Made by a program: the position numbers and the translations under genes
Part shown: positions 5,037 through 46,742 of the stretch, piece by piece
Numbering within the stretch: the stretch's first letter is position 1
Layout of the letters: each line of letters starts with the position of its first letter
The notes under the pieces: generated by a model
Told to the model about the DNA's origin: nothing
Seen by the model: only the letters and a program-made list of their open reading frames with translations
Database searches by the model: none
Assembly (NCBI GenBank): GCA_049999805.1
Contig: JBNGIO010003332.1
Coordinates: 1-56,943 of the forward strand
Origin: Folioceros fuciformis
Taxonomy: Eukaryota
Direction of reading: 5' to 3'
DNA: 56,943 nt

Positions 5037-7382
5037 CACGGACATTATCTTCGCACACAGGATCTTGGAAAGGACTCCTGCGCAAAGGGACGGGCCTCGT
5101 ATCTCTGGTAACCATCGACTTGGCTGTATCGCTAGAAAGATCCTTCAACTTGGCTCAGGTGCAACTCACCTGTATGCTGGCTGGGGTTTCCATCACTTGA
5201 GAATTTATTATCAGGTTCTGTTTCTATGGTACATCCCAAGACTGACACGACTGTCTTTGACAATTTTCCGTTATTTCTTTCTCGGGGCAGGTGGATATTC
5301 ATTGAACATGGTATATGATTCTTGGCAGCTTGCATGACCGAAGTGTAGACCATGCGGTCTTCCTGCGCTACCAGATATTTCTACAGCAAACCACATGCAA
5401 GCCAACGTCGTACAGAGTTTGACCTTGCTCTTGAAAACTATAGCAGGGAGCTCCATCGCTGGGCTTATTTGTATACCAGGCTTGCCAGCAAATGATCGCA
5501 TGTGCGGCGAAGTTCCTACCGGAGTCACTTATGAAGGACTCTGTGATCAGTAGGATCTTCACGAGGAATAGGTACAACGGGTCTTTCCAATTGCATCTTG
5601 CCAGTCACACCATCGACAGACTTGCAAGGATGTTGTGATTGGCCTCTGCAGCTTCGTCTTGCTCTTGTCCTTCCCTAACTCCTGATTTCTGCCTCGCCGC
5701 CGATTGCCTTGGTTTGTGTTCAGGAGGTGAAATCTGGCTCAGTGTACACGACTCATCATGCTCCAGCAAACGAAACGAAAGGTAAACCTCCTGTACATTG
5801 TCCAGCGAGCTGTGCTCCTATTCTCTGGTTTTCCAAAAGCCTGTGTTGCAAGTTCCACATACACAGCCTTTGGGAACTTGCAACACAACCTTTGTTGCTA
5901 GTGATAAACAAGCGCACCAACAATCCAACCTTGACACAAACGGCCCTCTTACAAGAAACCGCGGTACGAGTTTTGTCCATGCATCTGGAGGGACAAGAAA
6001 ACAAGCACGCCAACAGGCCTTGTAATCCACGGACCCCTTGTCCCCAACCACGAAACACGTGAGAATCATCCTCAACGTGGCGACGCGCTCAAGCACCGCC
6101 AAGAAGATAGGCATCAGAGACATGTCACAGATCCCGCACACAGCTGCTTCAGTTGGCATACATCCGAATCTCTCCCTTCATCTGAGGCGCATCTAGTAGG
6201 CTGACGTCTCTGCCATGTTTCACACGGTCAGGACACTCCAGTGGGCATCCACGCCTTGCAAATTCGGGCTCCCCTTCTCCCTGGCCTCGTTAGGATTCAG
6301 GTCTGGCAGGGGTGGAGTCGGATTTCCCCTCGGGCAGCTTGGCAGCGCGGCATGCTTTGTGATTGAGTAGCGTGACGACTGCCTCATCCACCGTAGCAAC
6401 CTGCCTCGCACTGCTGCACACCTAGGGTGCGCGCCAGGTCAGAGCGAGGGTTAGGGTTTGCTCTTGCTGGTTGTGGTGGTTGGGGGTCAGCTTGGAGGCC
6501 AGATTGCAGCGTACACGATCCAGCCTCCCACGAATGTCGAGGAAGGAGACGGCGCGCACGCATAGTCCGTGGTCGCAACACATGTGGTGTATCAGGGCTT
6601 CACCGGTTGTTGAAAGTGGCTGACAAATCCAACAACCTCTGGTGTCGGGTTACGTTGCCGCTGCTCAGATCCTATTCTTGCATCGAGCTCATGAATGAGT
6701 AGTACTCAGTCTGAAGTGAGGCTATCCTGAGGTGGAGCCTGGACTGCGGGCTGGCACACACATAAAAGGCTGATGCTGCTCCACGACCCTCGGAATGAAG
6801 ACGGCATCAGGAGCGTCGTCCAGAAAGTTCCCTAACTCTACACCAGGGTGCGCTGCTAGGCGCGCGATCGGCGTCGTACGAGAGCGTCTTGGTGGATTGC
6901 GATCTTCTCCTCTTCAAATTCTAACGGAAGGCCCCGCTCGGCTGCGTTGTTGTGGAGCAGATTTTGATGAATCCTCGGTACGTGCCAGGATTTCGGTTCA
7001 CTGCCGAGTTCTTCCGCGCAAGAGACCTCACCTGCAAACATACATACATCTGCGCTTTAGATTACAATTTCCCAAGCCCGAGGCCCGCATATAGTAAAGA
7101 GGCAGCGAGCTGCAGGACCGGCGGTAAGGGGCATTTGGGTTTCAAGTGGAAGGCCACATGAAGGCTGAATCAACACTTCAACTCCCCGCTCCGTTGGCTC
7201 CATCTCGAAAGCTCCGTGACCGCAATCACATTGCTGGCACTGAAGTCTGAAGTTCCTGCGGTCGTGGAGGAGATGGATTTCCGTTCTTTTTTTATGATTA
7301 GTATTCAATATGCAGATCTTAAATGATAAAGGACAAGATAGAGAAAGATGGGTCCAAGGTCAGGGGTACATTTCTCCGGTTA

Positions 7383-8340: not shown

Positions 8341-10313
8341 ACATCACTCTGTCGCCCACTTTGCAGCAAAGTTGATGATGACATATTCATAAACACAAAG
8401 TCTTGTGAACAGAAGCTTCAACTTTCTCATCCAAATGTATAGGCAATAAACACATAGCACACCAGTCCCACCCACTCGTGTCTTTGATTTTGTCTTTATA
8501 GCACTCCTTGCAGCTTTGGCATGTTTTGTCGTACAACAAGTCGGGCAGTTGAGGTCCGTGTAGCACTCCTCACAGCTTTCGCACGTTTTGCCGTACAACA
8601 AGCCAAGTAATTGATACTTTTACTACTCAATATAGACAACATTGGCAAACGATGCAACTACCCCACAAGTTATGTCCTCTTTGCAATTGTGATTCACACG
8701 GGAACAGATTAGATGCAAAGGATAATGAATCATACAACAGGAGAAATTCTTAATGTCTGTTGCCACCCGTGGGTGTAGCGGTAATGTTTAAACATGGAGA
8801 TTGATTGCCATTGAGAGTGATGAGATGTCACACGGGTGGCCTTGTCGCCATTTATGTAATGCGTGCCAAAACCCAACAAGTTAGGTGCTAGATGGAGTTG
8901 GCTTTGCAGAGAGATTTGGTATAGTACCTCCAGACATTGATACAAACATTGTGTTAAATATGACATGCCTGGATGGAGTACTTAGAGGACCCTGAATTCC
9001 GGATCCAAATCCATGTGGGTTAATCACAAAAGTCAGTCCCTTTTGCTGGACTTGGATAGAGTTCTTGCTCTCATCTTGCTGTGAGTGATGGACCAAAAGT
9101 TGGGCTGGTGATAACGAGGGCAGGGATATCCGAGGCGTCAGTGGAAAATATCCAGCGCGCTAATACGTAAAACATCGGGAGAGGTATTTGTCGAGGCCTG
9201 GTGGCTCTCTTCTCTCTCAGTGACTGGGGCCCTCCTGACCCTGGCCTTGGGCGCGAGCCGAGCCAACAACAACAAAGCTTCTGCTCCCCTGTGCCTTTTT
9301 TCGCATCCACGCTAGAGCGCGATCTTGAGGGTTGCTACTTGCGCTGGAGCGCCTTCCTCTCGTCTCTGTATCTTCCCGCCATCGCTTCCGCCTGGCTTCG
9401 TTTGAGCGCTGCGGGCGCCATCGTTAGCCCTGCCTCCTCTCCTCTCCTCCCCTCTCCGCTGCACACGCTTCTCGTTTCTGCTCTTGCAGCTGTTTGTTTC
9501 GTTGGCCAGCAGCGGACGCAGCACCGGAGGCCCTTGCTTCCTGCAGTCGGGGATTGCCGCGCTTGCTCGCCTCCCGCCCGCTGGAGCAGGAGGAGGCTGT
9601 GGGGGGAATTGAGGACGGCGGCGGCGACCGGGACTGGGGGGGTGCTGCTGCTTCTTTGTAGGTTGGTGTTTTATGCTCTGCTCTGTGGCCTGGCTGCATT
9701 CCTATAGCTTGTACTTGGAAATGCTGCCGTTGCTGCGGTTGCTGCGTTCCTTGGAGGCGGCTGCTGCATTCCGGCGGAGCTCCTGACTACCGCGGGGGTG
9801 CAACGCAGCTCGGACGAATTAGGAGGAGTGGCGAGGAGATGCCGGCCGGGCTTGGTTAGGGTAGGGTAGAGGAAGAGGAAGAGGTGCTGCGCAGGATTAT
9901 GCCTATGCAGCGGCTGGCGGGCCGGAGTTTCGGGGTTGGCTGGCTTGGGAGGGGACGGAGATGGTAGAGGAGGCGTGTCGGTAGCACGCCAGCGGCTGGC
10001 CGGGGTGCGCCTGCGCATGCAGACATCGGGGATTGGTTGACCTGGCTATGACCGAGGCAGGGGGCGGAGGAGAAGGTCGATGACGCTGGAGTAGTGGTGC
10101 GCAAGGGAGGTTTAGGGAGGGGGTAGGCCGGAGGTTTTTTTCTGTCCAGGTAGGTGGGGACTGACAGGGACGCAAGGCTGGCGGGCCGCGGGAGCATCTG
10201 ATGGCGGATCCGCCTCGCGGTTTTGCTAATGCTCTGTGCGTTTACAAGCCTAGGTGCGCCGGCTCAATTGCTGCAGGAACCGGCAAAGTTGTGTCTTCCT
10301 GGAGGGGGAAAGC

Positions 10314-26052: not shown

Positions 26053-29000
26053 GCTTCAATTGTGAAGGTATTGATAGTATTCATTCTATAGCAAGAGGCT
26101 GAAATTCAAGAGATACAATAGATGGAGACAAGCATGAAGAGACATTGAGACACGCTCAGTGGAGAGTTTTGGAGGCAAGAACTTCACACTATGAAAGTTA
26201 AAAGATGAAGATGCTTCTCACTGAGAGAGGAGTATGAAAATTCGTTGACAAGGGCCTCGAAGACACACCCAGCGAAGGAGACCTTGATAAGGATGGACAT
26301 GCATTAGCTGCAATCCTTCTTAATGTGTCTAATGTCATACTCTCTCAATTGAGTGAGTGTGCAACGTCGGAGAAGGCATGGACTACCCTTTGCTATATGT
26401 CCGAAAAACGAAGTATGGTGAGTGAGATGTTGTTGGAGCAACAACTGTCCAACTTCAAGATGGTTGAAGGGGACACGATTCAACAGCATGTCAACAAGTT
26501 GAAGAACTTGGTTGATCAAATGCAAGCTGCAGACATCAAATCTTCTAAAGGAAGGATTATTATGGTGTTATTGAATAGTTTACCATCTGTGTACATGCAA
26601 TTTGTGTTGTCTTTTAGGACATCAGCAACGATATATTCAAGTGATAAACAAGCGACGATAGAAGAGGTGGTTGGGTTGCTTCTACAAGACAAGCTGGTGA
26701 ATTCATTCAAGAATGAACACAAATATGACTTGGTACATTTTTCGAGGAAAGGAAAGTCACAAGGGAAGACCCCATATGACAACTCAAGTGAAGGATCAAA
26801 GGAGAAAGTTACAAAGAAAAAGACATGGGGTACTTGCCATTACTATAAGAAACCTAACCATTATGCACAAGACTGCAGGACAAGATTGGTTGACTTGAAG
26901 AAGGGAAAATAGTCACAAGCCAATTAAGTAAGTGAGCAGGAAGAAAATCTTTTTTCTGCTTCAACAATAGAGACAGTGGGAGATCGCTCATCAAGGAAGG
27001 ATGAGAGTCTATACCTAGAGTTTGGAGCATCTCAACACATTACCTACAATCAACCTTGGATCTCAAGCTACAAAGAAATACCGATAGGGCATAAGGTGGC
27101 GCTTGGTGATAACAGGTCACACAAGATCAAAGGGAAAGGTGTCATAAAGGTAAAACTACCTGGTAAAAAGTCCAAAGGTACTATAAAGGATGTACATCTT
27201 GTACCTAGTTTTGCTAAAAATCTTCTTTCTATAGCTAGAATTATTGGCCGAGTAAATGAGATTGTGTTCAATTCAAAAGGATGTTGCATCCAACCCGAAC
27301 AACCTAAATCACATAATGTTACAGTGATAGCCAAAGGTATTCGGGAAGGCAATCTCTACAAGTTGTGTGCTTTTGTAGGAGATGAAGAAGATTACGCAAC
27401 TATGTCAAGTTCACCTCCCAGCTAAGGATCTTTAAGTCTATGGCATCAACATCTAGGCCATACAAACATAGATACCCTTAAATTGATGTAGTCCAAGCAT
27501 TTGTTTAAGGGTTTAAGTTTCGATATTAAAGACACAGGTGATTATCAACCATGTTAAGCTTGTATCATGGGCAAGCTTCACCGCTCTCAGTTCCCTAAGA
27601 TCGGGGCTCGTCAAGCTAGTAAGAAGCTAGAGCTTGTACGCACCGATGTGTGTGGACTCATGAAGAATCCTACTCATGGTGGATCATGCTATATTCTAGT
27701 CTTTGTGCATGACTTCATAAAAAGGAGTTGGACTTATCTCTTGAAGGAGAAGTCCAAGGTTTTCAACATATTTAAGACATGGAGAGTCTTGGTTGAAAAG
27801 GAGAATGGAGAATGCTTAAAGACTTTGAGAAGTTACAATGGAGAAGAGTACATCTCTTCTCAATTTAAAAGCTTTTGCAAGAAGTGTGGAATTTGAAAAC
27901 AATTCACAATTCCTCATACGCCACAACAAAATGGAGTAGCAAGAGCGCAAGCTTAGAAGTCTGGTGGAAGCAGCAAAGTGTATGCTCCATCGCAGTGCAT
28001 TGGAAGTACATTTTTGTGGAGAGGCTACTTTTACAGCCACTTACATTTTGAACAGAGTTCCAACTAAGGCTGAGCTTGGAATGACACCAGAAGAGACATG
28101 GACTGACATCAAACCTATTGTCAATTACTTTAGGATTTTTAGTTTTGTAGTTTATGCTCATGTTCTGAAGCAAAATCAAACCAAATGGGATCCTAAAGGC
28201 ATGCAATGCATCATGCGTGGATACTCTGATGAGGAATCGAGGAAAGAGGAATCGGTTATATAACCCTTCTACGAAAAAAATCATCTTTAGTAGAGATATT
28301 GTCTTTGATGAAGTATTAGATCCTCCCAAAACAATGGGAGAAACTCCCGTAGTTATCACAGAGTATAAGGAGGTATACGAGACACCTCTAGATACACCAT
28401 TTGTTTCCTCTCCTCATGTAGATAAGACTTCTGATCTTGAGGATAGATCCCTTTCTGATAATGTAGAGAATATACATAGTGTTGCAGACATTGACACAGA
28501 ACCTAATCCAACCAACCCAGCCTACACCAAATCTCAGGAGATTAACAGTAGGAAACCTTCAAGAAAGCTTTTGGAGTCAATGAATGCATGTGACATTGAA
28601 ATGGCTTTGTTAGTGGATGTTGATGAGCCACAAACCTTGAAGGAAGCATTGGAAGGACCAAAGGCTAAGGAGTGGAGAGCAGTTCTAGATAGTGAATATA
28701 ATTCACTTATAAAAAATAAGACCTGGAAAATCATTCCTCTTCCTCCAGGAAAAAAGTGCATAGGATCAAAATGGGTATTCAAGATTAAACATAACGCTGA
28801 TGGAAGCATTGAGCGTTATTAGGCAAGAATGGTAGGGAAATGATATACACAAGTGCCAAGTATTGATTACATAGACACTTTCTCTCATGTTGCCAAGATA
28901 ACATCCATCCGAGTACTCTTAGCAATAGCAGCAACCATGGATTTGGAGATCCATCACATGGATGTCCAAACATGATTTTTTTATAGAGATTTGGAAGAAG

Positions 29001-29830: not shown

Positions 29831-30537
29831 TTTTTAATAGACAAGTCATCTATGTCAGATATTGATACGATCAAATGTACACATGATGGCCTTTAATTAA
29901 ACATGTCCGATGCTAATAGCGATCTCGAAAGGCGCTTTGGATGAAGACCTTGCTCATGCTGAGCATCGTTCCAATATCAGCAAAACCGGTTTTCATCTTT
30001 CCGTCCCTGCTGACCACTTCATCCACGACGTCTGAGGTTCTCTTGAGACAAGTCCTGCACCTCGACTCGCCAACACCAGCTAAACCGCTAAGAATGCCTT
30101 GCGCAGCTGAAGACAATCTGCCAGGAGAACTACAATATTTCATCTGTTCACGTCGCCGACACTTGCGGAGGACGCATCTTGAAATTCACCATTTCACTAC
30201 AGGATACGAAAGGCACTGAGGCAGAAGCTTTGAGGGTGGTGCATTGCGTTTTCCAATGCTGAATGCAGCTGCTTTGGCTTGCGATCCCCGCAGCGGTAGG
30301 GTTCTGGGGACTCGACACAGGAGTTCACTGGGGGGAATGTCTTGTGCCGAAAACGTCTGCTTGAATGCGGATCTAAGGTTAAAAGAGATCCGAAATGGAC
30401 GCAGAGAAGGTCCTCGTGTATTCCGACTACTGGGCTTTCTGACCGAAATCGAAATGCTCCACTTTACAATTAACTGTACTTTAAGTGCTTTCTCGCCATT
30501 GAAACACGCTCCAAAGCCATAGGCGCCTGATGGAGCC

Positions 30538-33500
30538 ATGGCTGCCTGGAGCGTGGCAATCGAGTCACGCGCAAGACAAGGGCAACCGTATCCTCTGAGG
30601 GAACAGCTTCCCTGGACCAAAGAACTTAGAGGGGTGACCGTTAGTGGTGTAGGTGCTTCCTCGCACGCAACTGTGATTTCCAGGAACCAGCCGAAGGCGA
30701 ACATCGAAGCTACGAGCTGCAGCACCCCTGCAGGAGAGCCAGTTCGGGGCCGTGCCCACGAGCTGGGAGACGGTGACGCTCGTAAGATTGGGCCTAAACC
30801 CTATGAAATTGGCGTGACTCCTGAAACCGTGAGCAGGCTATGTGAGCAGGGTCGTGTGACAGAGGCGGTTGAGGCTTTGGGTATCCTTGCGCAGATAAGG
30901 AGGAGTTGTGTTTCGAGATCTCTTTTTCACGGTGTTGTGAGGAAATGTGTGATGAAGAGGGATATTGTTTTAGGTCGGAGAGTCCATGCCTTAATGGTGA
31001 GTACGGGGTGCGAGTCGGATACATTCCTGTGCAATCACATCCTGCGAATGTATGCTTCACACCGAAGGTTGCAAGATGCGATGGATGTGTTTGCAATGGT
31101 CGCTATACCTGATGCCTTCATGTGGTCGTCCATCATTTCTGCGCATGTAAAGTATGGAGAAGAGAAGCAGGCCATACAGCTGTATCGTCGGATGCGGGGG
31201 TCCAAAGTGAAGCCAGATGGTCATGTCTTTGTGGCGGCCCTTCAAGCTTGTGCAAGGGGATTGGACTTGGAAGCTGGACAACAGGTGCATGCAGATGTGG
31301 TGGCCAGTGGGGTTGAGCCTGATTTGTTTGTCTGCAGTAGCTTGGTGGACATGTATGCAAAGTGCGGGAGCCTGGAAGATGCTCAGCAAGTCTTTGATGG
31401 ACTCTGTCGGAAGGATGTGGTAACATGGAATGCCATGATAGCAGGGTACTCGCAGCGGGGCATGGGCCAGGAAGCCCTGCGATTGTACAACACTATGCGA
31501 GCCGAGATGGCTACACCTGATTCTGTGACGTTTGTGTCCCTCTTGCAGGCATGTGCATGTGTGGGCGCCCTAGCTCTGGAGACGGGGAAGGAAATCCATG
31601 CACATATAATAGAGCGAGGGCTACAAGCCCACGTCTTGGTAGCAAACAGTTTGGTAAACATGTATGTAAAGTGTGGCAGTGTGAACGATGCTCAGGGAGT
31701 ATTTGATGGAATGAGTCAGAAAGATATGCTGACGTGGAATGCCATAATATGTGGCTACTCCCGGCAGGGCATGGTCCAGGAAGCCCTTCACGTTTACAGT
31801 GCCATGCAAGGCGAGGGCATCACTGTACCCCATCCAATGACATTTGTTCACCTCCTGAATGCATGTGCCAGTGTGGGCACTGCAGGTTTGGAGATAGGTA
31901 AGCAGCTTCACACACAAATTAGGGAACAAGGACACCAAGCTGATGTGGTTGTAGCCAACAGTTTGGTCGACATGTATGCCAAGTGCGGCAGCCTAGAGGA
32001 TGCTCACAGTGTGTTTGACGGACTTCATAAGAAAGATGTGGTGACGTGGACTGCTCTTATCGGAGGGTATTCCCAGCAGGGCATGGGCCAGGAAGCCCTT
32101 CAACTCTACAGAGATATGGAAGGAGAAGGAATAGTTGCCCCCGACTTGGTGACATTTGTGTGCCTTCTACAGGCATGTGCAAGTGTAGGCATCGGAGCCT
32201 TGGAGGTGGGCAAGCAGCTTCATGCACAAATCAGTAAAAGAGGAGATCAATCTGGTGCAGTTTTGGCCAACAGTTTGGTAAACATGTATGCGAAGTGTGG
32301 CAGCATGGAGGATGCTCAGCAAGTGTTTGACGGACTTGGTCACAAAGATGTGGTGACGTGGACCTCTCTAATTGCAGGGTATTCTCAGCAGGGGATGGGA
32401 CAGGAAGCCATCCATCTCTACAGGCGGATGCAAGCTGGAGGCATGGCGGTACCTAATTCTGTGACTTTCGTCTGCCTCCTGCAGGCATGTGCAAGCTTAG
32501 GAGCCCCAGCTTTGGAGATAGGGAAACAGATTCATGGGAATATTAGAGACTTAGGAAATGAAGCTGATGCATTTGTAGCCAGCAGCTTGGTAAGCATGTA
32601 TGCCAAGTGTGGCAGTATGGAGGATGCTCGGAGATTGTTTGATGGACTTGATAGAAAAAATGTCGTCGTGTGGAATGCCATGATTGCAGGATGTTCCCAG
32701 CAGGGTATGAACCTGGAAGCCCTTCGCCTCTACAATGCTATGCAAGAAGAGGGCATCACTAAACCCAATTCGGTGACAATTGCATGCCTCCTGCAAGCAT
32801 GTGCTGGTGTGGGCACCCCGGCTTTGGAGATGGGGAAGTTGTTTCATTCACAAATTAGAGAACAGGGACATCAGACTGATGTACGTCTAGCCAACAGTTT
32901 GGTGAACATGTATGCCAAGTGTGGCAGCTTGGAAGACGCTCAGAGAGTATTTGATGGCCTTGGTCAAAAAGATGTGGTGACCTGGACGGCCCTAATTGGG
33001 GGGTATTCTCAGGAGGGCAGAGGGGAGGAAGCTCTCAGTCTTTACCGTGTCATGAACGAAGAAAGCATCTCTGTACCTAACCCTGTGACATTTGTTTGCC
33101 TCCTGCAGGCATGTTCAAATGTGGGCACCCAAGCTTTGGAGATAGGAAAGCAGCTTCATGTGCAAATTAGAGATGGCGGACATCAGGCTGATTTGTTTGT
33201 AGCCAACAGTTTGATCAACATGTATGCTAAGTGTGGCAGCCTGGAGGGCGCGCAAAGAGTGTTTGATGGGTTGGGTGAAAAAGATGTTGTGACGTGGACT
33301 GCTCTAATTGCAGGGTATTCCGAGCAGGGCATGAGCCAGGAAGCCCTTCGGCTTTACAGTGTCATGCTAGAAGGAGGCACCGCTGTACCTAATTCCCTGA
33401 CATTTTTGTTCCTCCTGCAGGCATGTTCAAATTTGGCAGCCCTGCATCTTGGAAGGCAGGTGCATGCACAGATTGAAGAGCAAAGGCTTGAAACTGATCT

Positions 33501-34191
33501 GTTTATAGCCGCCAGTTTGATAAACATGTATGGAAAGTGTGGGTGCATGCTGGATGCACAGCAGGTGTTTGATTCGTTGCCTGAGAGAGACGTCTTCGTC
33601 TGGAGCGCATTGATTGCAGGCTACTCTTCCCAAGGGGACAGTAAAGCAGTGTTTGACTTGGTTGAGAGAATGAGAGCGGATGGTATCCAGCCAGTGGCCA
33701 TCACGTGTCTGAGTATTCTAACTGTATGTTGTCATGCAGGTCTGGTGAAGAAGGGGAGGGAGTACTTCGCCGCCATGAGCAAACAGTACAGCATCACTCC
33801 CACGGTGGAGCACTACACATGTATGGCAGATATCCTGTGTCGTGCAGGCCTACTTGATGAGGCTTTAGGTTTGGTAAGAGCGATGCCTGTAGTGTCAAAT
33901 GCTGCAGTCTGGCACACGCTGCTGGGTGCTTGTCAAAAATTGGGCAATGTGGATGTAGCACGCTATGCTTTCGACGAAGCAGTGAAGATGGACAAGAAAG
34001 ATACTGCAGCATATGCATTAATGTTCAATATATACAATGGCGCTCAGATGTGGGAGCAGGCACAGGAGATACAGGTCGCGAGGATAAAAATGAGGGCGTG
34101 GAAACAGCCGGGTCTGAGTTGGTGGACAGACACAAACGGGCTGGTGCACAGTTTTTTGGTCGGGCATGAAAGCAATCTTTCACGACAATAA
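30538..34191 (+). CDS. PLS-class PPR protein with extended (LL-type) L motifs and a truncated WW-type C-terminal domain, organellar RNA-editing factor
   Basis: 1217-aa intronless ORF with ~105-aa triplets (L motifs such as TFVCLLQACASVGIGALEVGKQLHAQI carry a 2-aa insert), E1/E2, and an end at AWKQPGLSWWTDTNGLVHSFLVGHESNLSRQ*. Confidence 0.95.
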   Translation: MAAWSVAIESRARQGQPYPLREQLPWTKELRGVTVSGVGASSHATVISRNQPKANIEATSCSTPAGEPVRGRAHELGDGDARKIGPKPYEIGVTPETVSRLCEQGRVTEAVEALGILAQIRRSCVSRSLFHGVVRKCVMKRDIVLGRRVHALMVSTGCESDTFLCNHILRMYASHRRLQDAMDVFAMVAIPDAFMWSSIISAHVKYGEEKQAIQLYRRMRGSKVKPDGHVFVAALQACARGLDLEAGQQVHADVVASGVEPDLFVCSSLVDMYAKCGSLEDAQQVFDGLCRKDVVTWNAMIAGYSQRGMGQEALRLYNTMRAEMATPDSVTFVSLLQACACVGALALETGKEIHAHIIERGLQAHVLVANSLVNMYVKCGSVNDAQGVFDGMSQKDMLTWNAIICGYSRQGMVQEALHVYSAMQGEGITVPHPMTFVHLLNACASVGTAGLEIGKQLHTQIREQGHQADVVVANSLVDMYAKCGSLEDAHSVFDGLHKKDVVTWTALIGGYSQQGMGQEALQLYRDMEGEGIVAPDLVTFVCLLQACASVGIGALEVGKQLHAQISKRGDQSGAVLANSLVNMYAKCGSMEDAQQVFDGLGHKDVVTWTSLIAGYSQQGMGQEAIHLYRRMQAGGMAVPNSVTFVCLLQACASLGAPALEIGKQIHGNIRDLGNEADAFVASSLVSMYAKCGSMEDARRLFDGLDRKNVVVWNAMIAGCSQQGMNLEALRLYNAMQEEGITKPNSVTIACLLQACAGVGTPALEMGKLFHSQIREQGHQTDVRLANSLVNMYAKCGSLEDAQRVFDGLGQKDVVTWTALIGGYSQEGRGEEALSLYRVMNEESISVPNPVTFVCLLQACSNVGTQALEIGKQLHVQIRDGGHQADLFVANSLINMYAKCGSLEGAQRVFDGLGEKDVVTWTALIAGYSEQGMSQEALRLYSVMLEGGTAVPNSLTFLFLLQACSNLAALHLGRQVHAQIEEQRLETDLFIAASLINMYGKCGCMLDAQQVFDSLPERDVFVWSALIAGYSSQGDSKAVFDLVERMRADGIQPVAITCLSILTVCCHAGLVKKGREYFAAMSKQYSITPTVEHYTCMADILCRAGLLDEALGLVRAMPVVSNAAVWHTLLGACQKLGNVDVARYAFDEAVKMDKKDTAAYALMFNIYNGAQMWEQAQEIQVARIKMRAWKQPGLSWWTDTNGLVHSFLVGHESNLSRQ

Positions 34192-36539: not shown

Positions 36540-37004
36540 CTCGAATGGACTTTGAGTCTTAGGAGTTCATGTAGGACCTCTTGATTTTATTTATAGGTTT
36601 GTGGATGCAGCCTTTGATGACAATTTAACTTATATCATGGACTTCTCATAAATCGGTGAACCTCATATTGCATTTGATATTCTTCCTTCTTACTTTGTGC
36701 GGCAACTATGTTACCTCACTAGAACTATTGTCTTCTCTACCTTTTTTATCAAGTCTCAAGAAGTTCAACAATCAAGCTATGCAGGCACTTAGCGACGTCA
36801 TAGGTCCTAACACCTTCGAGTGTGCTGTCGATGATTTGGTTTGGAAGCAAGCTTCCTTGCCAGCTCCCTTTGGGGGGAATTGGCTTTTGGCCATGGAGGC
36901 CACTGCCCCAACTACCTTTCTCGATAGTTGGGCCCTCTCGGCTTCAATTTTGGCCTCTTGTTTTTTGCTCTAGGATTCCCCCCTTGTTGATGATTTTATC
37001 TCAT
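36540..37004 (+). mobile_element. RLE-type (CRE-like) non-LTR retrotransposon, fragment 1 (RT C-terminus/thumb)
   Basis: Decayed translation GL*VLGVHVG...YLTRT...WKQASLPAPFGG...ATAPTTFLDSW matches the 'LGVPVG / QASLPxxxGGLG / APAAFLASW' pattern of RLE-clade RTs. Confidence 0.7.
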
Positions 37005-37034
37005 AACAAGGTCTAATCCAAACAGGCGAATTCC
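37005..37034 (+). repeat. Left terminal inverted repeat
   Basis: aacaaggtctaatccaaacaggcgaattcc. Confidence 0.85.
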
Positions 37035-37499
37035 GCCATTTTGGGCTTCGCCAAATTTTGACGTTCAAATTTCGTGTTAAATATCCACATTTTGATGCTT
37101 TTTTAACCAACAATGAATAAATGTGGAGGAAAAGGGTGTTGCGTACCAACGCAAACATTCCTTATTATGATAGTATATGCAAATTTGCGGGTATCCTTCC
37201 ATTCAAATACATGACAAAACCTAGTAATATGGCACGTATCAAGTAATTCAGGTGTTGTCCAATTCCATGTAAAGTCCTGCGTGTTTGAACTATCCCTAAT
37301 CTTAGTCAACCCTATTCTTTAAAATCATCAGCCGTCGATGTCTACTTGCATTTTCCATAAATTTAAGCGGGATAGGCCACTAGTAAACCGGCGCACTTTA
37401 ACTTGTAGTGCACTGGTAGATCGGCGCACACTACCAAACTCACGTATTTGGCAATCGAAAAGCGAAACTTGCTTGCCGTTCAATCCAAAAGACATCATA

Positions 37500-40190
37500 C
37501 CACTTTCTACTTAATAGGGTCGCTTTCTGCTTTCCACAAGACTTCATCATTTTCAGGCGGAAGTGTTTCTTGGCCGCGTTTTAGGATGTATAGGTTTTTG
37601 CGAATCAGGTTCCTCGTGTGGGAGGGAAATTGTTTTTGTCGTATCAAATCAAATCCATATGTTAGAATGAAAGTGTCTTCAATAAATAATGTATCTATAT
37701 GCTTCTTCTGCCTGGCCTGCGTTTGTGACCTCCTCATAACCCTCTTGGCGGATCTTCATGTGGTAAAATCATCTCTTCTTGGTATCAACCCTCAAAAGCA
37801 TCTGAACATTTGGTGACCCACCAATGAGTGCACTTTCACATATGGTTTTTTGCATGTAATATCAGCCTCTAAGACTTTGGCAATCCGAAACGGCCTATTG
37901 TCTTCGTCGGTCTCGCAAGGGACAACAATCATATGCCCTTTTTCTATTTGTTATGTCTCCATTCAAACTTTCGCGGTTGTCACAGAGCTGCACCTCCCTC
38001 TGGTATGCACCCACATACATGATTTTTCTGGGAATCACGTAGATCCGTGGATTCTGAACAACAATCTCGTTTAGAACAGTAACGGGTCCGTTCACTAATT
38101 CTGCCATCTCTCGATTATACCACCGCCAAGAGGAATTGAGGTCTTTGTCTACATCGAAGTTGATTGAATGCACGATAGCCTCTTGCTCTACCCAAAACCA
38201 TTCCACCAGAAGTTTTTGCCTGCTCCTAAGTGTTGTCTTAATCTCAGCTCCAGTTTTGTCCTGATTGCACTAGATTATATTCAGGAACATTGTCTACAAC
38301 TGTCCTTTGTTTTTTGCTCTTGGCTTGTAGATGTATCTATGGAGCAGCTTTGATATATGTGTCCGGAATATGCTTGAGAAACTCGATACCCTTACATGGC
38401 GACCAATATTCATCTGTGCAATACTCCTTCCCTCCCATCACTATTTTAAAGCCCCGTTCTCCTCAGCTCTCTCTTGTGATCTTGAATTGGTGTTGGAAAG
38501 AAATAATTGTGTAGTGATTGAACAACTAATACATTTTGATAACAAGCTTTCCTGTAAGGTACAAGCCACACAAATCGCCAGAAGTCTGGCACCTCCTTCA
38601 CTTCATGCACTACTAGTGTTGGTGTATAAGCATTCTACATAATAGCAATGAGTGTAGGTAAAGTGAGAGCGGTCGAAAACTAAGAGAACATCTGGTCCAC
38701 ATGGTCGTGAGTATGGCCCACTAGTAAAAACCCCACCTTTACCTCTTGAAGATTCTTTTCTCCACTAACATTCAGATAAGAAAACAACAATGCATTTTTG
38801 TTCTCTCTTGTCGTGTTGTCCAACTGCAAGTATAGAACTCTTGGAAGTAGTCCTACGTATGCGTGAATCACATGCTAGATAATAGAAATCGTCAAGTTCG
38901 CGTCATTCCTAATATTCCCATGCTCTATGAAAAGCTCAAGCATCATTGTACTATTGTACACCATGCATCCCACAACATGAACGTCAATAAGATCAACGTC
39001 CGCCAAATCCTTTGGAAGTCGCACAAAATGAGGAATCTGAGTTTTCTAATGATCCATACCATCTATGGACAACCCAAGGTATTTCGCCGGATCACCATAA
39101 CATTTTACATGATGCTTAATACTCTTCTCTTGCTCCGCCTTCAGTCTCTGTCAATGTACTTTTAAGTCACTTCCGAAACCCTTTGTCACAAACGAATTCC
39201 ACCCACAAAGCGACCACCAATTTATTTCAGCATACACTCACATTTGGCACAGAGAGTGCGCCGGTATACTGGCGCCCTCCAATAGGTGCAGGAGAAGTGT
39301 GCCAGTCTACCAGCGCACTCTAGCCAAGTAGACTGGTGCACTCCTGCCAAGTCATGACAAGTGCGTTGGTAGACCGGTGCACTTCTCCTACACCTGTTGG
39401 AGGGCGCTGGAATACGAGCATTGAATACAAAAATTATGAGAATTAGTAACATAAAAAAAAAACTTATTCGTACTTTTTTTTTGTTTATCCGATTCAGAGC
39501 GAATGTTTCTCTTCAAGTAATTGCATGTAGTACATAACGAAAATATGTTGGTTTTTGAAATGCGGACTTTTGAGAAGTGCGAGGACCATAGCTGATAGAA
39601 GTAGGAGTATGAAATGCTGTATTGGTTTGCCCTGCTCATTTGCCACTTGTACTCCATGAAAATTTCCTCCTTGGTGTACGAGTCTGGCAGATGGTACACT
39701 TCAACATTTGGCATACGCTCCGCAATAAGGAGAAACAATTGATCCATCCATACGCATGCGGCAGGGGCGTAGCTTGGAGTCCATGTTTCTGAGCGAATAG
39801 CACCAGACTAAACAATGTTCCCACAAGCTCGATCTTTCACTCCCTTGTACTTGTTTGAACCAACGCAATAAATTCTTCTAAAAGTGTCTCGACAACACCT
39901 TATTTTTCCCGACCTGATTACGAAAGGTTCAGTGATTGGACATGCGTTCTCAATCTTGTCAACATCAAAATGTGTTTGCAAAAAGGTTTCTTGTTCTGGC
40001 ATGCTCATCTTTAGAAAATGGTATTGCAACTCCCTAAATCCTAGTTTACTAAGCAACCTCAGACATTGTTTCGCAAAGCATATTTTCCTATAATCGAGAG
40101 TAATATGAAGCTTTGAATACTTAGCCTCTGGTATTGTTGAATTTCTCTTTCGCCGGCCTCCTTGATGGTCTAAGGGAGTTTCGATCATTG
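37500..40190 (-). pseudogene. Sola-like DDD transposase, pseudogenised, with an intron at ~39181-39473
   Basis: N-terminal Cys-rich region (CFAKQC...CCRDTFRRIY), ERMP..YHLP...FSLCTTC, then SIDGMD, LYLQLDNTTRENKN and FLLVGHTHDHVDQMFS as the catalytic triad. Multiple stops and frameshifts. The Sola assignment rests on motif resemblance plus the 4-bp TSD. Confidence 0.8.
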
Positions 40191-40959
40191 ACTTTGACGC
40201 CGACTTGTGATTAAAGCTTCTCTGGTGGCTTGGTGTTCCTCTGGAGCTTGAACACCACTAACTGCAACACCCCTCTTCTTCCGCGTTGATGGAATCATGC
40301 ACTCCCTGAATCTTTTTTTTCATTTTCTCGGGGCCAACCTTTTGTTGCTATAACTCCGATTCCCCCTCCAACACTCCCTCCTGAGAACCTACAAACATTG
40401 GTGTTTCCCCTTCGAGGTGTCATCTTCATCACTGTGCCTACAAATGACTGTCGTGGGGTTGGCGGGCTTGGACAACTATGAACTTTGTCCACAAGACTAA
40501 GTCGGATTGGCAACGACCTCAACTCGTTGCATTGATGTTTGCGTGGATAGTCTCCTGGCCATAAGTATCATCAACATATTAGTAATCCATAAGCAAATCA
40601 CATTCCTCTCGAAGCACGAACGCAACGCAACGTTCGTGCTTGTTGACCTTCGTCGCTGCTGTCATCACAGAAGATCTCATACCCTCGGCACGAAGATAAA
40701 GGTTTGTTGGCCATTAGAGCAAAAAGGGACGAAGGTTCTGTATGAACTTCTTCTAGACATGCTTTTAACTGTGCAGCGTTGTAACAAAGCCCCTCAACCA
40801 AGTCCTAACGAGCTAGTGTTTAATGCAATTTGAATGTTTGGGCAAAAATAGAACTAGTTGTTCATCAAGAATTGCCGCCCGATCCAAGCTTGATCATACT
40901 ATAAATGCATTGGCGTTCAATTAGATTGGATATTCTATTTTGAGCTACACAATTACATT

Positions 40960-41823
40960 TTGAATTCTATCTTGCACATTTCCTCTGCCTGGGGCATTCT
41001 TCTACAACATCTTTCCTCTCCAAAGAGACAACGTCCTTTCCGACTGTCCATATCTTTGGTTGCAAAGCAATGGCAGCTGGTCGTCGGAGCAACAAACTAC
41101 TGCTTGCGGACATGGATGTGCAGGTTGTGGAGGCGCTTCCCCGATTACGAAAGGAAAGGCAAGTCGGGAAAGCAGTTGCATGAGCATTGTCTAGTCAATA
41201 CACTGAAAGAGATGGACATTGACCTCCACCACCCGATGTCGAAGACACTTCTCCACACGCCTAGGCCGCTCTAGGAAGAAAGGATAACTCAAGTGGAAGC
41301 GTGAGAGTGACAAATTCAAAAGCAAGCGAAGTGCCCATTAACCATCTTCCTGTGAATGTGACTCAAGGTGGCAGTACGAGGGGTAGTCAGAATTACAACA
41401 TTTCGAATGCCTACAACTTCGTAGAGAGATTGGGATTGAAGAAGTTAGAAGACACTCTAGCAAAAAGATTCAACACTGATAAGGAATGGTTTTGATAGTT
41501 GAAGATGAGCCTGATGACTTTAACTTGCCTTGGATTCCTCTTGTTGCTTTGTGGGTGAATGGGTTTCAAGGCTTGGAGGACGATGAAGTAGGAAGAGCAG
41601 GATGGATTCTTTGTGCGTCAATGGATGGTGTAGACGACAAAACTCAAGTGAATTTCATCCTTACCTGACACCCACCCGGCCACATTACGAATGACTACGA
41701 TAGTCATAGTTTAATCGTTATGATTGTTTCAAAGGCCACTCCTCATTGGTGCAAACCGCTGTGGTTGAGAAACGCGCTAAAAGACTGTCTTATTATGAAG
41801 GATGTAAGCAGTGTTTTCAGTTA
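40960..41823 (+). pseudogene. Unidentified decayed ORF inside the transposon
   Basis: Run of adjacent + strand ORF fragments (40960-41274, 41301-41495, 41486-41668 and beyond) linked by frameshifts and stops; no family recognised. Confidence 0.3.
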
Positions 41824-41975
41824 AAAACTGTAATATTTCAGTACCCGAAATGACCCTACACCCTAACTTTTGCGTCATTTTGTCCGCTACGCAGGGTGGA
41901 GAATAGTTTTGTAGAACTGTTTTGCGTTGTGTGGGAGACGCGGTGCTGAAGAACCGAGCACTTGTGGCATAGCTT

Positions 41976-44900
41976 GTGGGAGAGCGGCAGTGGAAGTCAT
42001 TGCAAGCGCAATTTCGTGTTTCAAGCTCACGTGAAGTAGATTTCGTGAAGGACAGGCGAGAGATTCCACGTATGCAACCTGAAGTATTGGAAGAGGAGGC
42101 CCTTGACATCCCTGAAAACAGCAAAGACGAGGAAGATAAGGAAATGGCTGAGTACTCTCTAGCGGAAGATAGTCTGAACGACACTGTAGAGACGACCCAC
42201 AATTCCAGCGAGGACAAAGCAGCAGCTGACTCCCCAATGGAGATTACTCCAGCGCGGAAGAGGGTGACTCAAGTGTGCCGGTCTACCAGCGCACCAGGGC
42301 AGCACAAGAGGAAATCATCTACATCTCCATCCAAACAGCGAAAGAGGACATCCAGTGAGGCTTTTAGTTGTTTGCAGAGCTCATAGCTTTGGAGTTGTTT
42401 TTATGAAGATCTATTCTTTTGTAAGTGCTCTGACTTCTGACCCCAAACAAAACAATGACTATTTGTTTCTATATTTGCAACATCTTCGCAGACAAAGCGG
42501 AAAAAACCAGTAGGGTCCATAGCAGTAGGACACGCAGGGAGGCAGATGAGAAAGAAGGGTGGAGCAGTGCAGCTTGTGGAGCCAGAGCCCACTCAAGCTG
42601 TGGAAACTAACTCTCAGAGGTTTGAGAGGTTGGCGTAGGATGAAGACCATATGAATGGTATCAGAAAGACGGCCAAGAGGATTCGGTCGACGACACTTGA
42701 CTTGCATGTTGATGTTTTGCACCCTGCGTCATTCATCACTTCTGATGCTCAAATAAGGCAAGTTGATGAAGGTTGGATGAAGAGCTTCTTAGTTAGGCAG
42801 ATGCAGGCTGGATCTATGAAGGAAGGGATCTTGCCTCTCCTATGTATGATTGACCCTAAGCAAGTAGGGACCAAGGAAGATGTATCTCTTGACAAAATTA
42901 CAGCCCAGCAATACCACATGGGAGTTTTAGGTGGAAACCATTGTTTTGTAGCTATGCAAAAACTCCACTAGATGTTTCCGTCAGAGGATAAGTATGAGTG
43001 GATGGAGAGGCACGTTTATGCTGGGCTTACAGAGGAAGAGAGGAGAGTTCTGGCTACGCAGACAAGAGGAAGAGGATGGGTTTACTAAACAGGTCAGGTA
43101 CATTCATGACGAGCTGGATATTTTCGCTAGGACTCATTCAGTGGATGAGAAGCCACTAGTGAAGTGGAAGTTTAACCTATACAGGTTGCTTGGTATGACT
43201 GACGATGATGGAGATCCTCTCGACACGGACGGGGTATAGAAGATGGTTGATAGGCAGAAAATGCCATGTTGAGTAGCCAGATGTTCAGTGGTATTGTGAG
43301 ATAACGTGGACCGGATATTTAAAATGTGGGAATAGTGTGAGCTGCCGGAGCAGATGAGCACGGCCACAGCAGGGACCAAGAAGAGGGCAAAAGCAAAACA
43401 AAAGATAGGAGACTCAGCCATTCCAAGTTCATCTTCACAGGAATCTGAAGATAGCAGCAGAAAGCCATCGGTGATGTAGGGCAGGCCGTGGAGAGCCTTT
43501 CAAGGCATCCCAGCAAGTGTGAAGGGAGAGGAGATGTTGATTGTTGTAACACAGAAAGTTATTGAAGGCAAGCTCCAGTTGAAAGACATGGACACTGAAG
43601 TCGGGAAGAAGAAGAAGATCCACTTGATTCAACATGCTTTCCGAATTGCGATGAAGTGTTCCACATTCAAAGAAGCATAAGCAATGTATCCGAAACATAC
43701 TAAAGATGGCCACCTTTTGAAGTTCCAGATAGCCTTCGCGAAAGTGGTAAGAAACATTTTGTTTTTGCTGTTTACCATTTTGCCAGTAAATATTTAACCT
43801 CTAGTTTGTTGAACTGCATTGGGTCGGTAGACCAGCGCACTCCTGCCGGCATGGGCCTTAGTGTGCAAGTCTACCGGCCCACTCATGCCGGCTTGGGCCC
43901 GAGTGTGTTGGTCTACTGGCTGTTAGTAATAAAGGGTTATTTTAATATAACCTACCTTAGGGTTAATTAACCGTAGTTATGAAAAGACACTTTGTATAAA
44001 TTGTAATTTTTTTTATGTGAGTTTAATTAATTTTGTTATTGTGCACTAGCTCTTTTTTTCTAGCACTAGCGCACTCCAATGAGGGTAGCGGGAGACAACT
44101 GTCGGTTGCCACACTAACAAGTACAATTCTAATTGCAGAAACCTGGAGATATAATGGACTTGGAGTCCTTGCCGAACCTTTCCCAAGATTTTGTATATTC
44201 GGCGAAAAACTGGAAAAGAATGGAAGAAGAGAAGCAAAAGCCGGCGGCTGGCGATATGGACGTAACCTTATTGGACTTCTAAGCTCTAGTGAGTAACACA
44301 AGTTAATCAACGGAATGTTATGGAAATGAAGGCATTTCTTGTCAAACGCCCGTATACGCTGCTATTTGCACACTTACTTCGAGGATTATAGCGACATGAG
44401 TATGACAATCACATGAATATAGCATAGCTGGATGAAATGATTCGAGGATTCAGCGAATGCACGTCGAGTAATATTTTCAGAGTTATTCTAATGCACAGAG
44501 TTTATTTGATCTCGGAAGCAAGGGAGGCACTATGACCATGGTGCAAGAAGGAGAGTATACAAACATTGGTATGGGAGAAGACAAACATACCCCCAAACGC
44601 AGGAGCAGTGGAAATAGTTGAATATTTAACTGTTGGAAGTGCAGTGCAAACTAAGGCTCAAGAGTCAAAGGCTCCACTTTTCGCTAATCAAGGGTTTCTC
44701 TTACCACAGGTTATAAGGCATGGAGTGGTGGTGAAGAAGCACCTTTTCCATTTTGCAGATACTCATGTCGTCTCTCCGTACCAGAAACCATTAGGGCTGA
44801 TGAGTATGCTCGTAAATATGTTTTCCTATAAAGGTGACTGGGTGGTTGATGCATGCACAGCTTTGGGTCTCTTCTCCAAAGTGCAGTTGAACATGGGAGG

Positions 44901-45313
44901 CATGCGGTGGCTATCGATGTCGATGCGAGGTGCATGACATACATCATGCAGCGGATTATCGGTCTAGGGTCTTTGCCTGACTTTGATGAAGAGATTTTGA
45001 TAGAATCTTTCAAATGTGGCCCATCAAAGTTTTGGGCAAAAGAAGTGTGCGGGGATGGCAAAATGACCGCAAAATGCAATTGTTTAGTCTGTTGGGGAAG
45101 AAAGAAGAGGTGATATCATAGAATGATGATAGGCCAACAAAGGACCTTTACTCCATTACCGTGTGGGATGAGAATGGTACTTTGCCACCCCAAACAGTAG
45201 ATGACCCCCACTTTTCTGTGCTACGTGTGGGAGGCGATGACTTTGGCGATACGGATGCACAATGGCTTAAAGATTTAGATGTAGTTGTAGATTCTCAAGG
45301 CCAACCAGGATGA
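41976..45313 (+). pseudogene. Decayed multi-exon gene: acidic/basic N-terminus + ParB/Srx-like domain + beta-class N4C/N6A DNA methyltransferase (N6_N4_Mtase-like)
   Basis: ParB-like: QIRQVDE...ILPLLCMID...GVLGGNHCFVAMQKL...HVYAGLTEEE (GGNH at 42930-42941). MTase: YTLLFAHLLRG at the motif IV position (44353-44385), LVWEKTN..VEYLTV, SPYQKPLGLMSMLVNMFSYKGDWVVDACT/FGSLLQSAVEHGRHAVAIDVD (44773-44925, 1-nt frameshift ~44860). Intron 43747-44138 has a GTAAGA donor, ACTAAC branch point and TTGCAG acceptor. Confidence 0.75.
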
Positions 45314-45592
45314 CCCAGTTTTTGTGTGAGCCTGTCGTCCTTAACATGAACATAGTATTATTTGAATAGGTCTTGCATCTATAGACTGGTGCACCACATC
45401 CTTCAGTTGCAAAATATCAAATTTTGTAAAGAACACTCACAATGAGTACTGAATATTTTTCGTGTTATTCATAATTTTTGAATAAAAAAAGTATGCAAAT
45501 ATGCCGGTGGCCTTCTTGTTCGGGAAAAGAGATAAAATGTGGATGTGGAGCACGGATCAAACCAAATTCAAAAAGCGCAAAACGGGCTTTGT

Positions 45593-45622
45593 GGAATCCG
45601 CCCGTTTGGATCCTACCTTGTT
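45593..45622 (-). repeat. Right terminal inverted repeat
   Basis: Reverse complement aacaaggtaggatccaaacgggcggattcc, 25/30 identical to the left TIR. Confidence 0.85.
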
Positions 45623-45790
45623 TCATGCATTGTGTGCGTTTTTCCTTTACAAGTATCTCTTTGGCAAGTGAGGGACTCTTTATCTTTGAAGGCTTGTGAG
45701 GCCCTACCTCCTCTCATCTCCTTTTCTAGAGAAGGGTTGAGAGGTCTTTAGGCCTCCCTCTTGGAAAAGCAATGCTATCGTGCTAAACAG
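45623..45790 (+). mobile_element. RLE-type non-LTR retrotransposon, fragment 2
   Basis: SCIVCVFPLQVSLWQVRDSLSLKACEALPPLISF continues the frame interrupted at 37004 (..DSPLVDDFIS). Confidence 0.6.
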
Positions 45791-46742
45791 TGTCAATCAT
45801 AAGTACAAGGTCTCACCACATACGCTAACCATATGTTGATACACCAATATGCTGGTTAGGCCGTTGGTTGGAGCGTAGGTGAGATTGTCTCGCCCGTGGA
45901 CAAGGAAAAAGAGCTAACTCCTTATCCCAAATGAGAACCAACACAACGCCTTGTGAGAAAACACCCCAGTGTTCTATCATCCACATCAATCAGTTCTAAA
46001 TAAAGAAAGCGTCATAGTGAGTTCACAGCAGCACCACGATGGGCGACTCGGCTTGTGCTTCTCGCAATTGTTTTCAGCTTTACAACCACCCTGCTAGGAA
46101 CGTACTATGACGGCCGCACGAGACCTTCCAACTTGCAATCTCTTGAGAGCAAATCCCTGTAGATCCACAAACCGTGCCCATGGCAAACACGGTTGTAATG
46201 AGTTGGAATAAGTTCTCGGCTACCCTACTAGTGAGGCATCCACACCTTCACGCTCAAACACGCACCTTGGCATGGACACCCACACTCACAATTGCAGCAA
46301 CACGTTCATAAACATGTCATCCTCAATTGAGAGAGTTCGGCATCAGGCCATAGTGTTTTGCGAGCAACATTCAATAGTGTTCAGCTCCGCACTTCCACGC
46401 TAGGACCCAAGAACTTCTAGCAACTACTCAGCCATGCCCAACAGCTCGATACTCATCTGTGTCTTTCTCGCTCCAGGCCGTTGCACACATTCTCACTCCA
46501 CGCCGTCGGTGCCATGCCACCCACGATCTCTATCTCACAGCCATCTCATAGCATGATGCCCTACGCTCCCCGTCACCCACGTTCAATCATCGCTCGCCCG
46601 TTTGGCCTATCATACCTCACTCACGAGCTTGCCCTAACTATGCCCACACTTCCCATATTTGCTGACTTTCTAGTTATTTAGTAACCAGCCCAATTATCTA
46701 GCCTATTAATTAACTAGCCTAATTAATCAGCATAGCCTGACA
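45791..46742. mobile_element. Probable solo LTR or other ~950-bp insertion within the LINE
   Basis: Begins TGTCA and ends TGACA; interrupts the LINE-like coding sequence. No clean 5-bp TSD, although tgctaaaca/tgctaagca lie nearby on each side. Confidence 0.45.

Follow-up and report, generated by a model that had tools for sequence, protein, structure and literature searches.

Contig JBNGIO010003332.1 of Folioceros fuciformis (56,943 nt, analysed over its whole length and hereafter called the window) carries a decayed DNA transposon of ~8.6 kb that holds 12–13 copies of a 22-bp palindrome. The element contains the remnants of two genes that diverge from its middle, a transposase gene of the DUF7869 family and a cargo gene that joins a ParB/sulfiredoxin (Srx)-like part to a methylase-like part, with the outermost palindromes placed a short way 3′ of the two genes. 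Judged from their sequence and layout, the palindromes are most likely element-specific cis-acting protein-binding sites. An earlier reading made from the letters alone (the sequence-only reading) had proposed cis-acting sites, and the proposal gains support from the recurrence of the same layout, with other palindrome sequences, around related transposases. Among the binders which that reading had named, the transposase fits best, as six of the eight array-bearing relatives show no trace of the cargo in the contigs examined, and the cargo protein remains alive as a candidate. We give about an even chance to the palindromes serving the DUF7869 transposase of the element as its family-specific binding sites; the transposase as the binder, and every effect of its binding, we infer.

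The palindrome and its copies in the element

The palindrome has the consensus GTGCGCCGGT-AG-ACCGGCGCAC (full form GTGCGCCGGTAGACCGGCGCAC), with a symmetry that runs to 24 bp (A...T on either side). A search with ≤3 mismatches revealed 6 matches at five distinct sites of the window (37408, 39256 on both strands, 39297, 39361 and 42273) and 0 matches in shuffled controls (n = 100, dinucleotide-preserving). The palindrome is real and non-random. At ≤7 mismatches there are nine sites, all within 37375–45394, plus two outside matches at 6848 and 24727 (7 mismatches each) that are at chance level for that threshold; no copy with ≤6 mismatches was found in the window outside 37375–45394. The 8.6-kb element contains 15 half-sites (10 bases, with C>T and G>A scored as half a mismatch), the remaining 48 kb two. 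The earlier impression that the motif is absent outside the element thus holds within the window, and comparison of the element with the window itself found no second copy of the element.

The best-preserved copy in the window, at 42273–42294, has 2 mismatches. The other copies have 3 (37408, 39256, 39297 and 39361), 4 (43819 and 43861), 6 (37375) or 7 (45373), and two weak ones at 39320 and 43903 (8/22 each) owe their assignment solely to the register of the array. Apart from these two, the ten copies listed in the sequence-only reading were all recovered at ≤7 mismatches (8/10); the list had overlooked 42273–42294, a degenerate fifth unit at ~39401–39421 and a pair of split half-sites (44043–44052/44065–44074). 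Neighbouring copies are spaced by 41, 41, 40, 42 and 42 bp in five pairs, close to the ~41–42 bp originally proposed, and by 33 and 23 bp in a further two. The many C>T and G>A mismatches noted at the outset are also real, amounting to 34 of the 51 mismatches across 11 copies in a tally that omits the row at 39400 (placed out of register). The observed/expected CpG ratio is 0.66 in the element and 0.68 in the whole window. A metagenome scan with the palindrome, its centre left free, returned 19 loci with one site each, which we rejected as chance matches: the AG/CT centre is present in none of them, most have 58–77% G+C and none encodes the transposase.

The ends of the element were mapped by placing contigs from DNA runs of the same organism on positions 36800–45900. 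About 1236 pieces of at least 80% likeness came from each of two runs of one sample, indicating a multi-copy family. Some contigs pass from 36999 straight to 45636, omitting 8636 bases and showing 17 other letters in their place, and similar joints lead from 36966, 36979, 37002 and 37004 to 45636–45644 with 14–37 unaligned letters between. These direct joints are empty sites in paralogous copies of a flanking host repeat, and they delimit an inserted unit at 37000..45635, with limits of about ±10 bp. Imperfect terminal inverted repeats form its outer edges on the left (37005..37105) and on the right (45525..45622); 37005–37034 pairs with 45593–45622 (83% of 30 nt) and 37073–37102 with 45525–45554 (73%). 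The boundaries drawn in the sequence-only reading were wrong, as these outer repeats had been left out. Its clusters near both ends are indeed subterminal, with the insertion ends lying further out than it supposed: the outermost palindromes are 375–430 bp inside the left end (~37000) and 242–263 bp (about 240–260) inside the right end (~45635), and are subterminal, not terminal. No target-site duplication was resolved for the window element, whose 17 empty-site letters do not align simply. Other genomic copies carry an extra palindrome unit beside 37430 and beside 42272, in the letters between contig joints, so the arrays vary in unit number at fixed places.

The flanks of the insertion (36884–36999 and 45636–45768) are themselves a repeat family, and paralogous contigs cross the insertion point. 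In one DNA run of the same sample, X3, the differences on 36800–45900 are strongly enriched in C>T (437) and G>A (325), which is not so in its two sister runs. X3 may be a cytosine-converted library, and if so could report methylation over the palindromes. The one run presumed to be RNA covered only 36 bases of this interval.

The left subterminal pair (37375..37429, with units at 37375–37396 and 37408–37429) lies ~110 bp 3′ of the last transposase homology, and the right subterminal palindrome (45373..45394) lies 60 bp 3′ of the cargo stop. Inside the transposase gene, a minus-strand intron of 237 nt (39237..39473, phase 1, in frame, GT at 39473–39472 and AG at 39238–39237) holds a five-palindrome cluster (39253..39421, with units at 39256, 39297, 39320, 39361 and ~39401) that fills 169 of its 237 bases; residue 331 of the homologue P0013 maps by tblastn to both 39454 and 39165, the homologous proteins being continuous across the intron. 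The cluster is one large inverted repeat with arms of 56 nt (39264–39319/39360–39415, 84% complementary), which the degenerate fifth unit completes. A plus-strand intron of the cargo gene (43747..44138, 392 nt, GT..AG, phase 0) is placed by P0084, which aligns up to 43746, and P0073, which aligns from 44227. It holds three palindromes with a 42-bp period (43819..43924, units at 43819, 43861 and 43903) and the split, degenerate palindrome (44043..44074). The two clusters fill canonical in-frame GT-AG introns, in line with the earlier claim of copies in introns of both genes. The accompanying statement that the motif is confined to non-coding DNA was not confirmed. The copy at 42273..42294, upstream of the conserved cargo domains, sits in a 137-codon open frame (41973–42386) of uncertain coding status, where the opposite strand is open too, and in the alignment of homologues to the element no cargo homologue aligns upstream of 42696.

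Palindrome arrays around related transposases

An alignment of 16 transposase homologues, run against genome bins labelled as prokaryotic, gave 18 loci that encode relatives of the transposase; the contigs are presumably eukaryotic and binned by mistake. Using a strict detector (8-base arms, ≤1 mismatch, 20 shuffles per locus), we identified a repeated palindrome peculiar to the locus in 8/18 loci, with 3–21 copies versus at most 1–3 in shuffles. The palindromes of these eight array-bearing loci are dyad-symmetric, 20–23 bp long, and stand beside the gene in arrays phased at 33–58 bp. Within one locus only the core of ~20 bp is kept and the flanks and spacers differ between copies, which fits a protein-binding site, not a copied longer unit.

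Palindrome likeness tracks transposase likeness (61% identical for L022/L024, 64% for L027/L035). L022 carries TTCAGCTCGA-S-TCGAGCTGAA, with 14 matches at ≤4 mismatches, 11 of them in an array at 4506–5290 with a core period of 50 bp; this array lies upstream of an intact frame of 964 codons (~963), and degenerate copies lie downstream. A palindrome related to that of L022 occurs in three copies upstream of an intact 962-codon frame in L024. The palindrome of L033, CTCGATTACGCGTAATCGAG, is present in nine copies (six perfect, 56–58 bp apart) that form an upstream array and, as in the window element, extend into introns: three perfect copies are shared out over two introns, of which that at 2458–2596 is of the GT..AG type. 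Variants of the L033 palindrome have 6 matches in L027 and 8 in L035 at ≤4 mismatches; those of L027 lie on both sides of the gene, so that the locus is bounded by arrays ~3.8 kb apart. Another sequence is found downstream of the gene in L029 (four copies by the strict detector). L023 has GGGACTCAAAGTTGAGTCCC on both flanks and once between the genes (13 copies left and 58 right, 42–43 bp apart), and L026 has AATGTTGAAATTTCAACATT on both flanks (28 matches at ≤4 mismatches, 33–34 bp apart). Arrays are present on both sides of the transposase gene in L022, L027, L023 and L026.

The right array of L023 (12198–14800) is a higher-order satellite, with 43-bp units in 385-bp super-units that are 98–100% identical. 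The candidate ends of L023 (~1811/~15567) are 26-bp inverted repeats that open with (A)ACACAGTGG and are each bordered externally by TTAG. At the junction of the paralogous empty site, the window element shows TTTAG, a resemblance that may hint at a shared 4–5-bp target. L023 also contains an unrelated 630-bp element at 9330–9960, resembling a miniature inverted-repeat transposable element (MITE), in the transposase intron at the position of the window cluster. This nested element is bordered by inverted ends unlike the palindrome (GCCTTTTCACAC...) and contains AATGCGCATT palindromes, and a second palindrome class in this intron was rejected as part of the nested MITE. Element termini were searched for in L022 and L027 and not found.

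These loci bear on the origin of the clusters, which could derive from a small independent mobile element, either a MITE built on the palindrome or a module of the introner kind that supplies its own splice sites. It would have been inserted repeatedly into the element, the two genes included, where it is now spliced out. The cluster at 39253–39421 is itself a large inverted repeat and occupies most of its intron, homologous proteins of several relatives from intron-less contigs are continuous across the cluster point, and the 630-bp element in the matching L023 intron shows that introns here accept foreign MITEs. Such an origin is nevertheless very unlikely. No target-site duplication was seen by reading around 39253–39421 or 43819–43924, the 48 kb outside the element hold no copies, and the cluster bins are shallower, not deeper, than the rest of the element. 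Summed contig depth in run X1, a poor measure, is 56 and 51 in the bins with the two intron clusters and 148–217 in their neighbours, which speaks against the palindrome being a more abundant independent repeat. The intron position of the window cluster is common to L023 and L026 and hence older than the cluster, the sites share a core of 20–22 bp and no longer unit, and distant relatives carry arrays at equivalent places.

The placement of copies in putatively transcribed non-coding parts, namely introns, directly 3′ of both stop codons and in the 5′ region of the cargo gene, would also suit palindromes that act as nucleic-acid structures, whether hairpins in pre-mRNA or the 3′ untranslated region, cruciforms that stall polymerase, or hairpin precursors of small RNAs that tune expression. 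The intron cluster could form a hairpin of ~56 bp. We regard this as highly improbable: a DNA-binding protein better accounts for the phasing at 33–58 bp and for a core of 20 bp that is strictly kept while its flanks vary, since compensatory change would be open to a hairpin, and in L022, L024 and L033 arrays also lie upstream of the open frame.

Candidate binding proteins

The transposase gene is a remnant with many stops on the minus strand (37543..40185), the span covered by homologues in tblastn (40185–37543). Its DUF7869 assignment comes from the profile PF25273, which matches window positions 38680–38874 with 74 bits (E 1.5e-20, cut-off 26) and scores 145–185 bits in homologues. The homologues are 40–50% identical and include many named by their source as Riccia sorocarpa, one from a mussel, one from a sea anemone and unnamed environmental proteins. 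DUF7869 proteins are numerous in a liverwort, animals and environmental eukaryotic contigs; a search of viral contigs with the transposase alignment gave 86 pattern matches, 0 of them confirmed. A model of one homologue (predicted local distance difference test score, pLDDT, 73.5) gave weak Foldseek matches (best E 1e-3), all to RNase H-like folds (terminase nuclease, PIWI, RNase HI, IstA, MuA and integrases), which weakly suggests a DUF7869 transposase with an RNase H-like fold. The alignment of transposases (A2) has invariant D, D and D/E columns, at most candidates for acidic active-site residues, and a profile search of solved structures with the transposase found nothing; resemblances to Tc1/pogo-like or CACTA/Chapaev-like motifs were considered and dropped. 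The C-terminal part of A2 is a conserved module, rich in beta structure and marked by a PFW-AKV signature. The window keeps this module at ~37800–37950 on the minus strand, and it could be a site-specific DNA-binding or a chromatin-reading domain.

The cargo gene on the plus strand (42696..45313) is likewise a remnant, with stops and frame changes. It comprises a ParB/Srx-like part (~42696–43055), a middle part (43300–43746) and an N6_N4 methylase-like part (44227–44996). The ParB label of the sequence-only reading is right as to fold, to go by a model of the cargo homologue P0087 (pLDDT 70–90 over residues 140–290, 55 overall): it matches ParB, Noc, KorB and sulfiredoxin structures (best E 2.1e-5, probability 1.0), and all matches listed are ParB/Srx-type or related. 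The window piece aligns to P0087 and keeps 7/7 invariant columns of alignment A4. From sequence only, support for ParB stays below threshold (DUF6551 E 0.02–0.03; Atlas leads DUF6551 0.92 and ParB_N 0.89), and a search for longer proteins with the ParB-like piece gave no match. Alignment A3 shows a conserved VIGG-H-EARRQL stretch, and the ParB arginine-patch motif is not evident by eye.

The methyltransferase label fared less evenly. All 12 HMMER matches to the methylase-like part carry PF01555 and the homologues pass the Pfam cut-off of 26.7 bits, which the window piece, with 19.1 bits, does not reach. Motif IV in homologues reads DIPH or DLPR (P0076, P0073) in place of the usual (D/N/S)PP(Y/F/W), and in the window it is broken by a stop (44139–44290). 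The C-terminal part of the cargo probably works like, or derives from, an N6_N4 methylase of doubtful activity, and the protein may not methylate DNA at all.

To identify cargo genes among the relatives, we searched the 18 loci by tblastn (E ≤0.1) and with two profiles (E ≤1). Cargo homology was found in 2/18 loci, L023 and L026 (2/8 of those with arrays). The L023 cargo lies on the strand opposite the transposase, with its ParB-like part at 5617–5249 (E 5e-16) and its methylase-like part at 3607–3296. That of L026 lies at 5865–5470 (E 2e-9; 4.5e-17 against a profile that excluded L026). Both loci have the divergent gene pair and the array placement of the window; the link to them runs via intact homologues, as direct tblastn of the window cargo fragments against the related loci gave nothing. 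The other six array-bearing loci, on short contigs, have no cargo match at these lenient thresholds. To judge from their layout, L022, L024 and L027 are compact elements of one gene each, closely abutted by arrays; L022 and L024 are single intact open frames. Arrays thus do not need the cargo in cis, and because they accompany the transposase rather than the cargo, binding by the transposase is favoured.

With the transposase as binder, each dyad would be occupied by a transposase dimer. The subterminal arrays, with units about four helical turns apart (40–42 bp), would gather many transposase molecules and could help to pair both ends, on the model of the subterminal repeats of other cut-and-paste transposons. 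The intronic and central copies would be internal binding sites, tolerated only where coding sequence is undisturbed, and such sites may damp activity or seed internally deleted derivatives.

Several observations weigh against the transposase. A search of the transposases for known DNA-binding domains recognised none, and the outer inverted repeats of the window element and of L023 lack the palindrome, which would oblige the enzyme to recognise another sequence at the tips. In En/Spm the protein that binds the subterminal motif is an accessory one, distinct from the catalytic protein. No repeated palindrome above shuffles is present in ten of the 18 related loci, mostly short and mainly coding contigs, and in L034 two adjacent copies do no better than shuffles. 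The strict detector scores the decayed element of the window itself at 1, as it misses old copies. A cargo protein acting in trans is a live possibility, the cargo-less contigs being short pieces, and the three cargo-bearing elements (the window element, L023 and L026) include both of those with a 42–43-bp period. The spread of sites over introns, intergenic and terminal non-coding DNA is also that reported for VANC21 (PMC5735166).

This last group of points leads to the cargo protein, for which the palindromes may be loading or target sites. The ParB-like domain and the helical region behind it would bind the dyads, and the methylase-like domain would mark or protect element DNA, in a form of self-recognition or anti-silencing like that of VANC or of the ParB-domain accessory protein of Plavaka. 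The predicted fold of P0087 (ParB/Noc/KorB/sulfiredoxin) and the conserved A4 columns in the window piece are consistent with such a role, and all three cargo-bearing elements have arrays between the gene 3′ ends and the termini, two of them with a period of 41–43 bp. There are precedents in Plavaka, where tandem inverted-repeat arrays adjoin a ParB-domain accessory gene (bioRxiv 10.1101/2025.02.11.637652), and in VANC21, an accessory protein whose motifs accumulate within introns and in non-coding DNA near the element termini (PMC5735166). We still rate the cargo protein an unlikely binder. Six of the eight array-bearing relatives have no cargo match, including single-gene elements flanked by arrays, the ParB sequence scores are sub-threshold, the arginine patch is not apparent in A3, and the DIPH/DLPR motif IV of the homologues is broken in the window.

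A fuller and quite improbable version takes the arrays as parS-like platforms. The ParB-fold cargo would load at the phased palindromes and spread, its methylase-like domain would mark or shield the element against silencing by host cytosine methylation, and the transposase would share the sites, coupling mobility and self-protection. If true, land plants would have in this element an equivalent of VANC that was assembled out of a bacterial partition module, and the 42–43-bp period common to cargo-bearing elements would be explained.

The palindrome contains CCGG and GCGC and could in principle be what the cargo methylase recognises, its enrichment ensuring modification of the element. The sole point in favour is the true N6_N4 methylase domain of the homologues (PF01555 in 12/12). 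We find this scarcely credible. At 22 bp the palindrome far exceeds known methylase target lengths, the palindromes of the relatives differ and have no common short core (some are AT-rich without CCGG or GCGC), motif IV is non-canonical, and the window fragment scores below the Pfam cut-off.

Known systems and further features of the window

A literature search on ParB/methylase/transposon combinations and subterminal palindromic arrays found analogues and nothing on the DUF7869 family, and a full-text search on the DUF7869 name found no paper. Subterminal binding-site repeats are already known; new here are the long phased dyads, the filling of introns and a ParB-fold/methylase-like passenger in a land-plant-like host.

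The CACTA element En/Spm has subterminal repeat regions bound by TnpA. It resembles the window element in carrying many short family-specific motifs a few hundred bases inside its ends, often as inverted pairs and distinct from the terminal inverted repeat. In contrast, the window unit is a single perfect dyad of 22–24 bp with a regular 40–43-bp period and copies also in introns, the DUF7869 transposase is of another family, and no accessory protein made by alternative splicing is known for a DUF7869 element. That the En/Spm binder is an accessory protein cuts both ways for binding by the transposase. Bacterial and plasmid ParB-parS systems also place dyad sites in phased tandem arrays beside a ParB-fold gene, and sopC of F has a period of 43 bp, as in L023 and near that of the window. 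Here, however, the sites belong to a nuclear transposon of a eukaryote, a ParA partner was not seen, the arginine patch is not evident by eye, and in most relatives the arrays come without a ParB-like gene (cargo in 2/8 array-bearing loci, on short contigs).

In piggyBac, identical 19-bp palindromes at both ends are each bound by two DNA-binding domains of the transposase dimer, and piggyBat is held in check by an additional site of this kind in its interior (PMC11707139). The window element is similar in its palindromes near the ends (~19 bp in piggyBac) and its internal sites. It differs in that piggyBac has one or two sites per end within ~100 bp of the tip, where DUF7869 relatives have arrays of up to 58. 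The transposase families are unrelated, and no intronic sites are reported for piggyBac (PMC11707139).

For VANDAL21 of Arabidopsis, chromatin immunoprecipitation showed VANC21 binding at introns, the intergenic region and terminal non-coding DNA (PMC5735166). The likeness lies in element-specific short motifs that form fast-changing tandem repeats and are bound by an accessory protein encoded by the element (PMC5735166). The VANC motif, however, is a 9-mer where the window has a 22-bp dyad, VANC itself neither resembles ParB nor carries a methylase domain, and VANDALs are Mutator-like; DUF7869 arrays also surround transposases without an accessory gene in the contigs examined. In red-algal Plavaka elements, tandem inverted-repeat arrays stand beside a ParB-domain accessory gene and self-binding has been proposed (bioRxiv 10.1101/2025.02.11.637652). 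These too are eukaryotic DNA transposons with a ParB-N-domain protein and an N6-adenine-methylase-domain protein (bioRxiv 10.1101/2025.02.11.637652). There, ParB is fused to a 2-oxoglutarate (2OG) oxygenase and the methylase to SET in two genes, whereas the window cargo has both domains in one protein, and the carriers are Plavaka, Zisupton or a Fanzor element, not DUF7869 elements in a land-plant-like host.

With these arrays the DUF7869 group gains a recognisable anatomy, namely lineage-specific palindromes of 20–23 bp in phased arrays around the gene, sometimes with intronic copies and, in one lineage, with a ParB-fold/methylase-like passenger gene. This anatomy is a signature by which annotators can locate element ends, and it defines a candidate protein–DNA pair. 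It may be a second independent case, beside VANDAL and red-algal Plavaka, in which a transposon recognises its own non-coding DNA; if the transposase is simply the binder, it is an ordinary mechanism in a new family.

Elsewhere in the window, which has the look of land-plant nuclear DNA, two long open frames (2142–5036 and 30523–34191) resemble, by eye, PLS-type pentatricopeptide-repeat proteins with near-identical 35-residue units. Open frames at 26238–28822 resemble copia-type gag and polymerase parts and lie in an AT-rich stretch (36–40% G+C).

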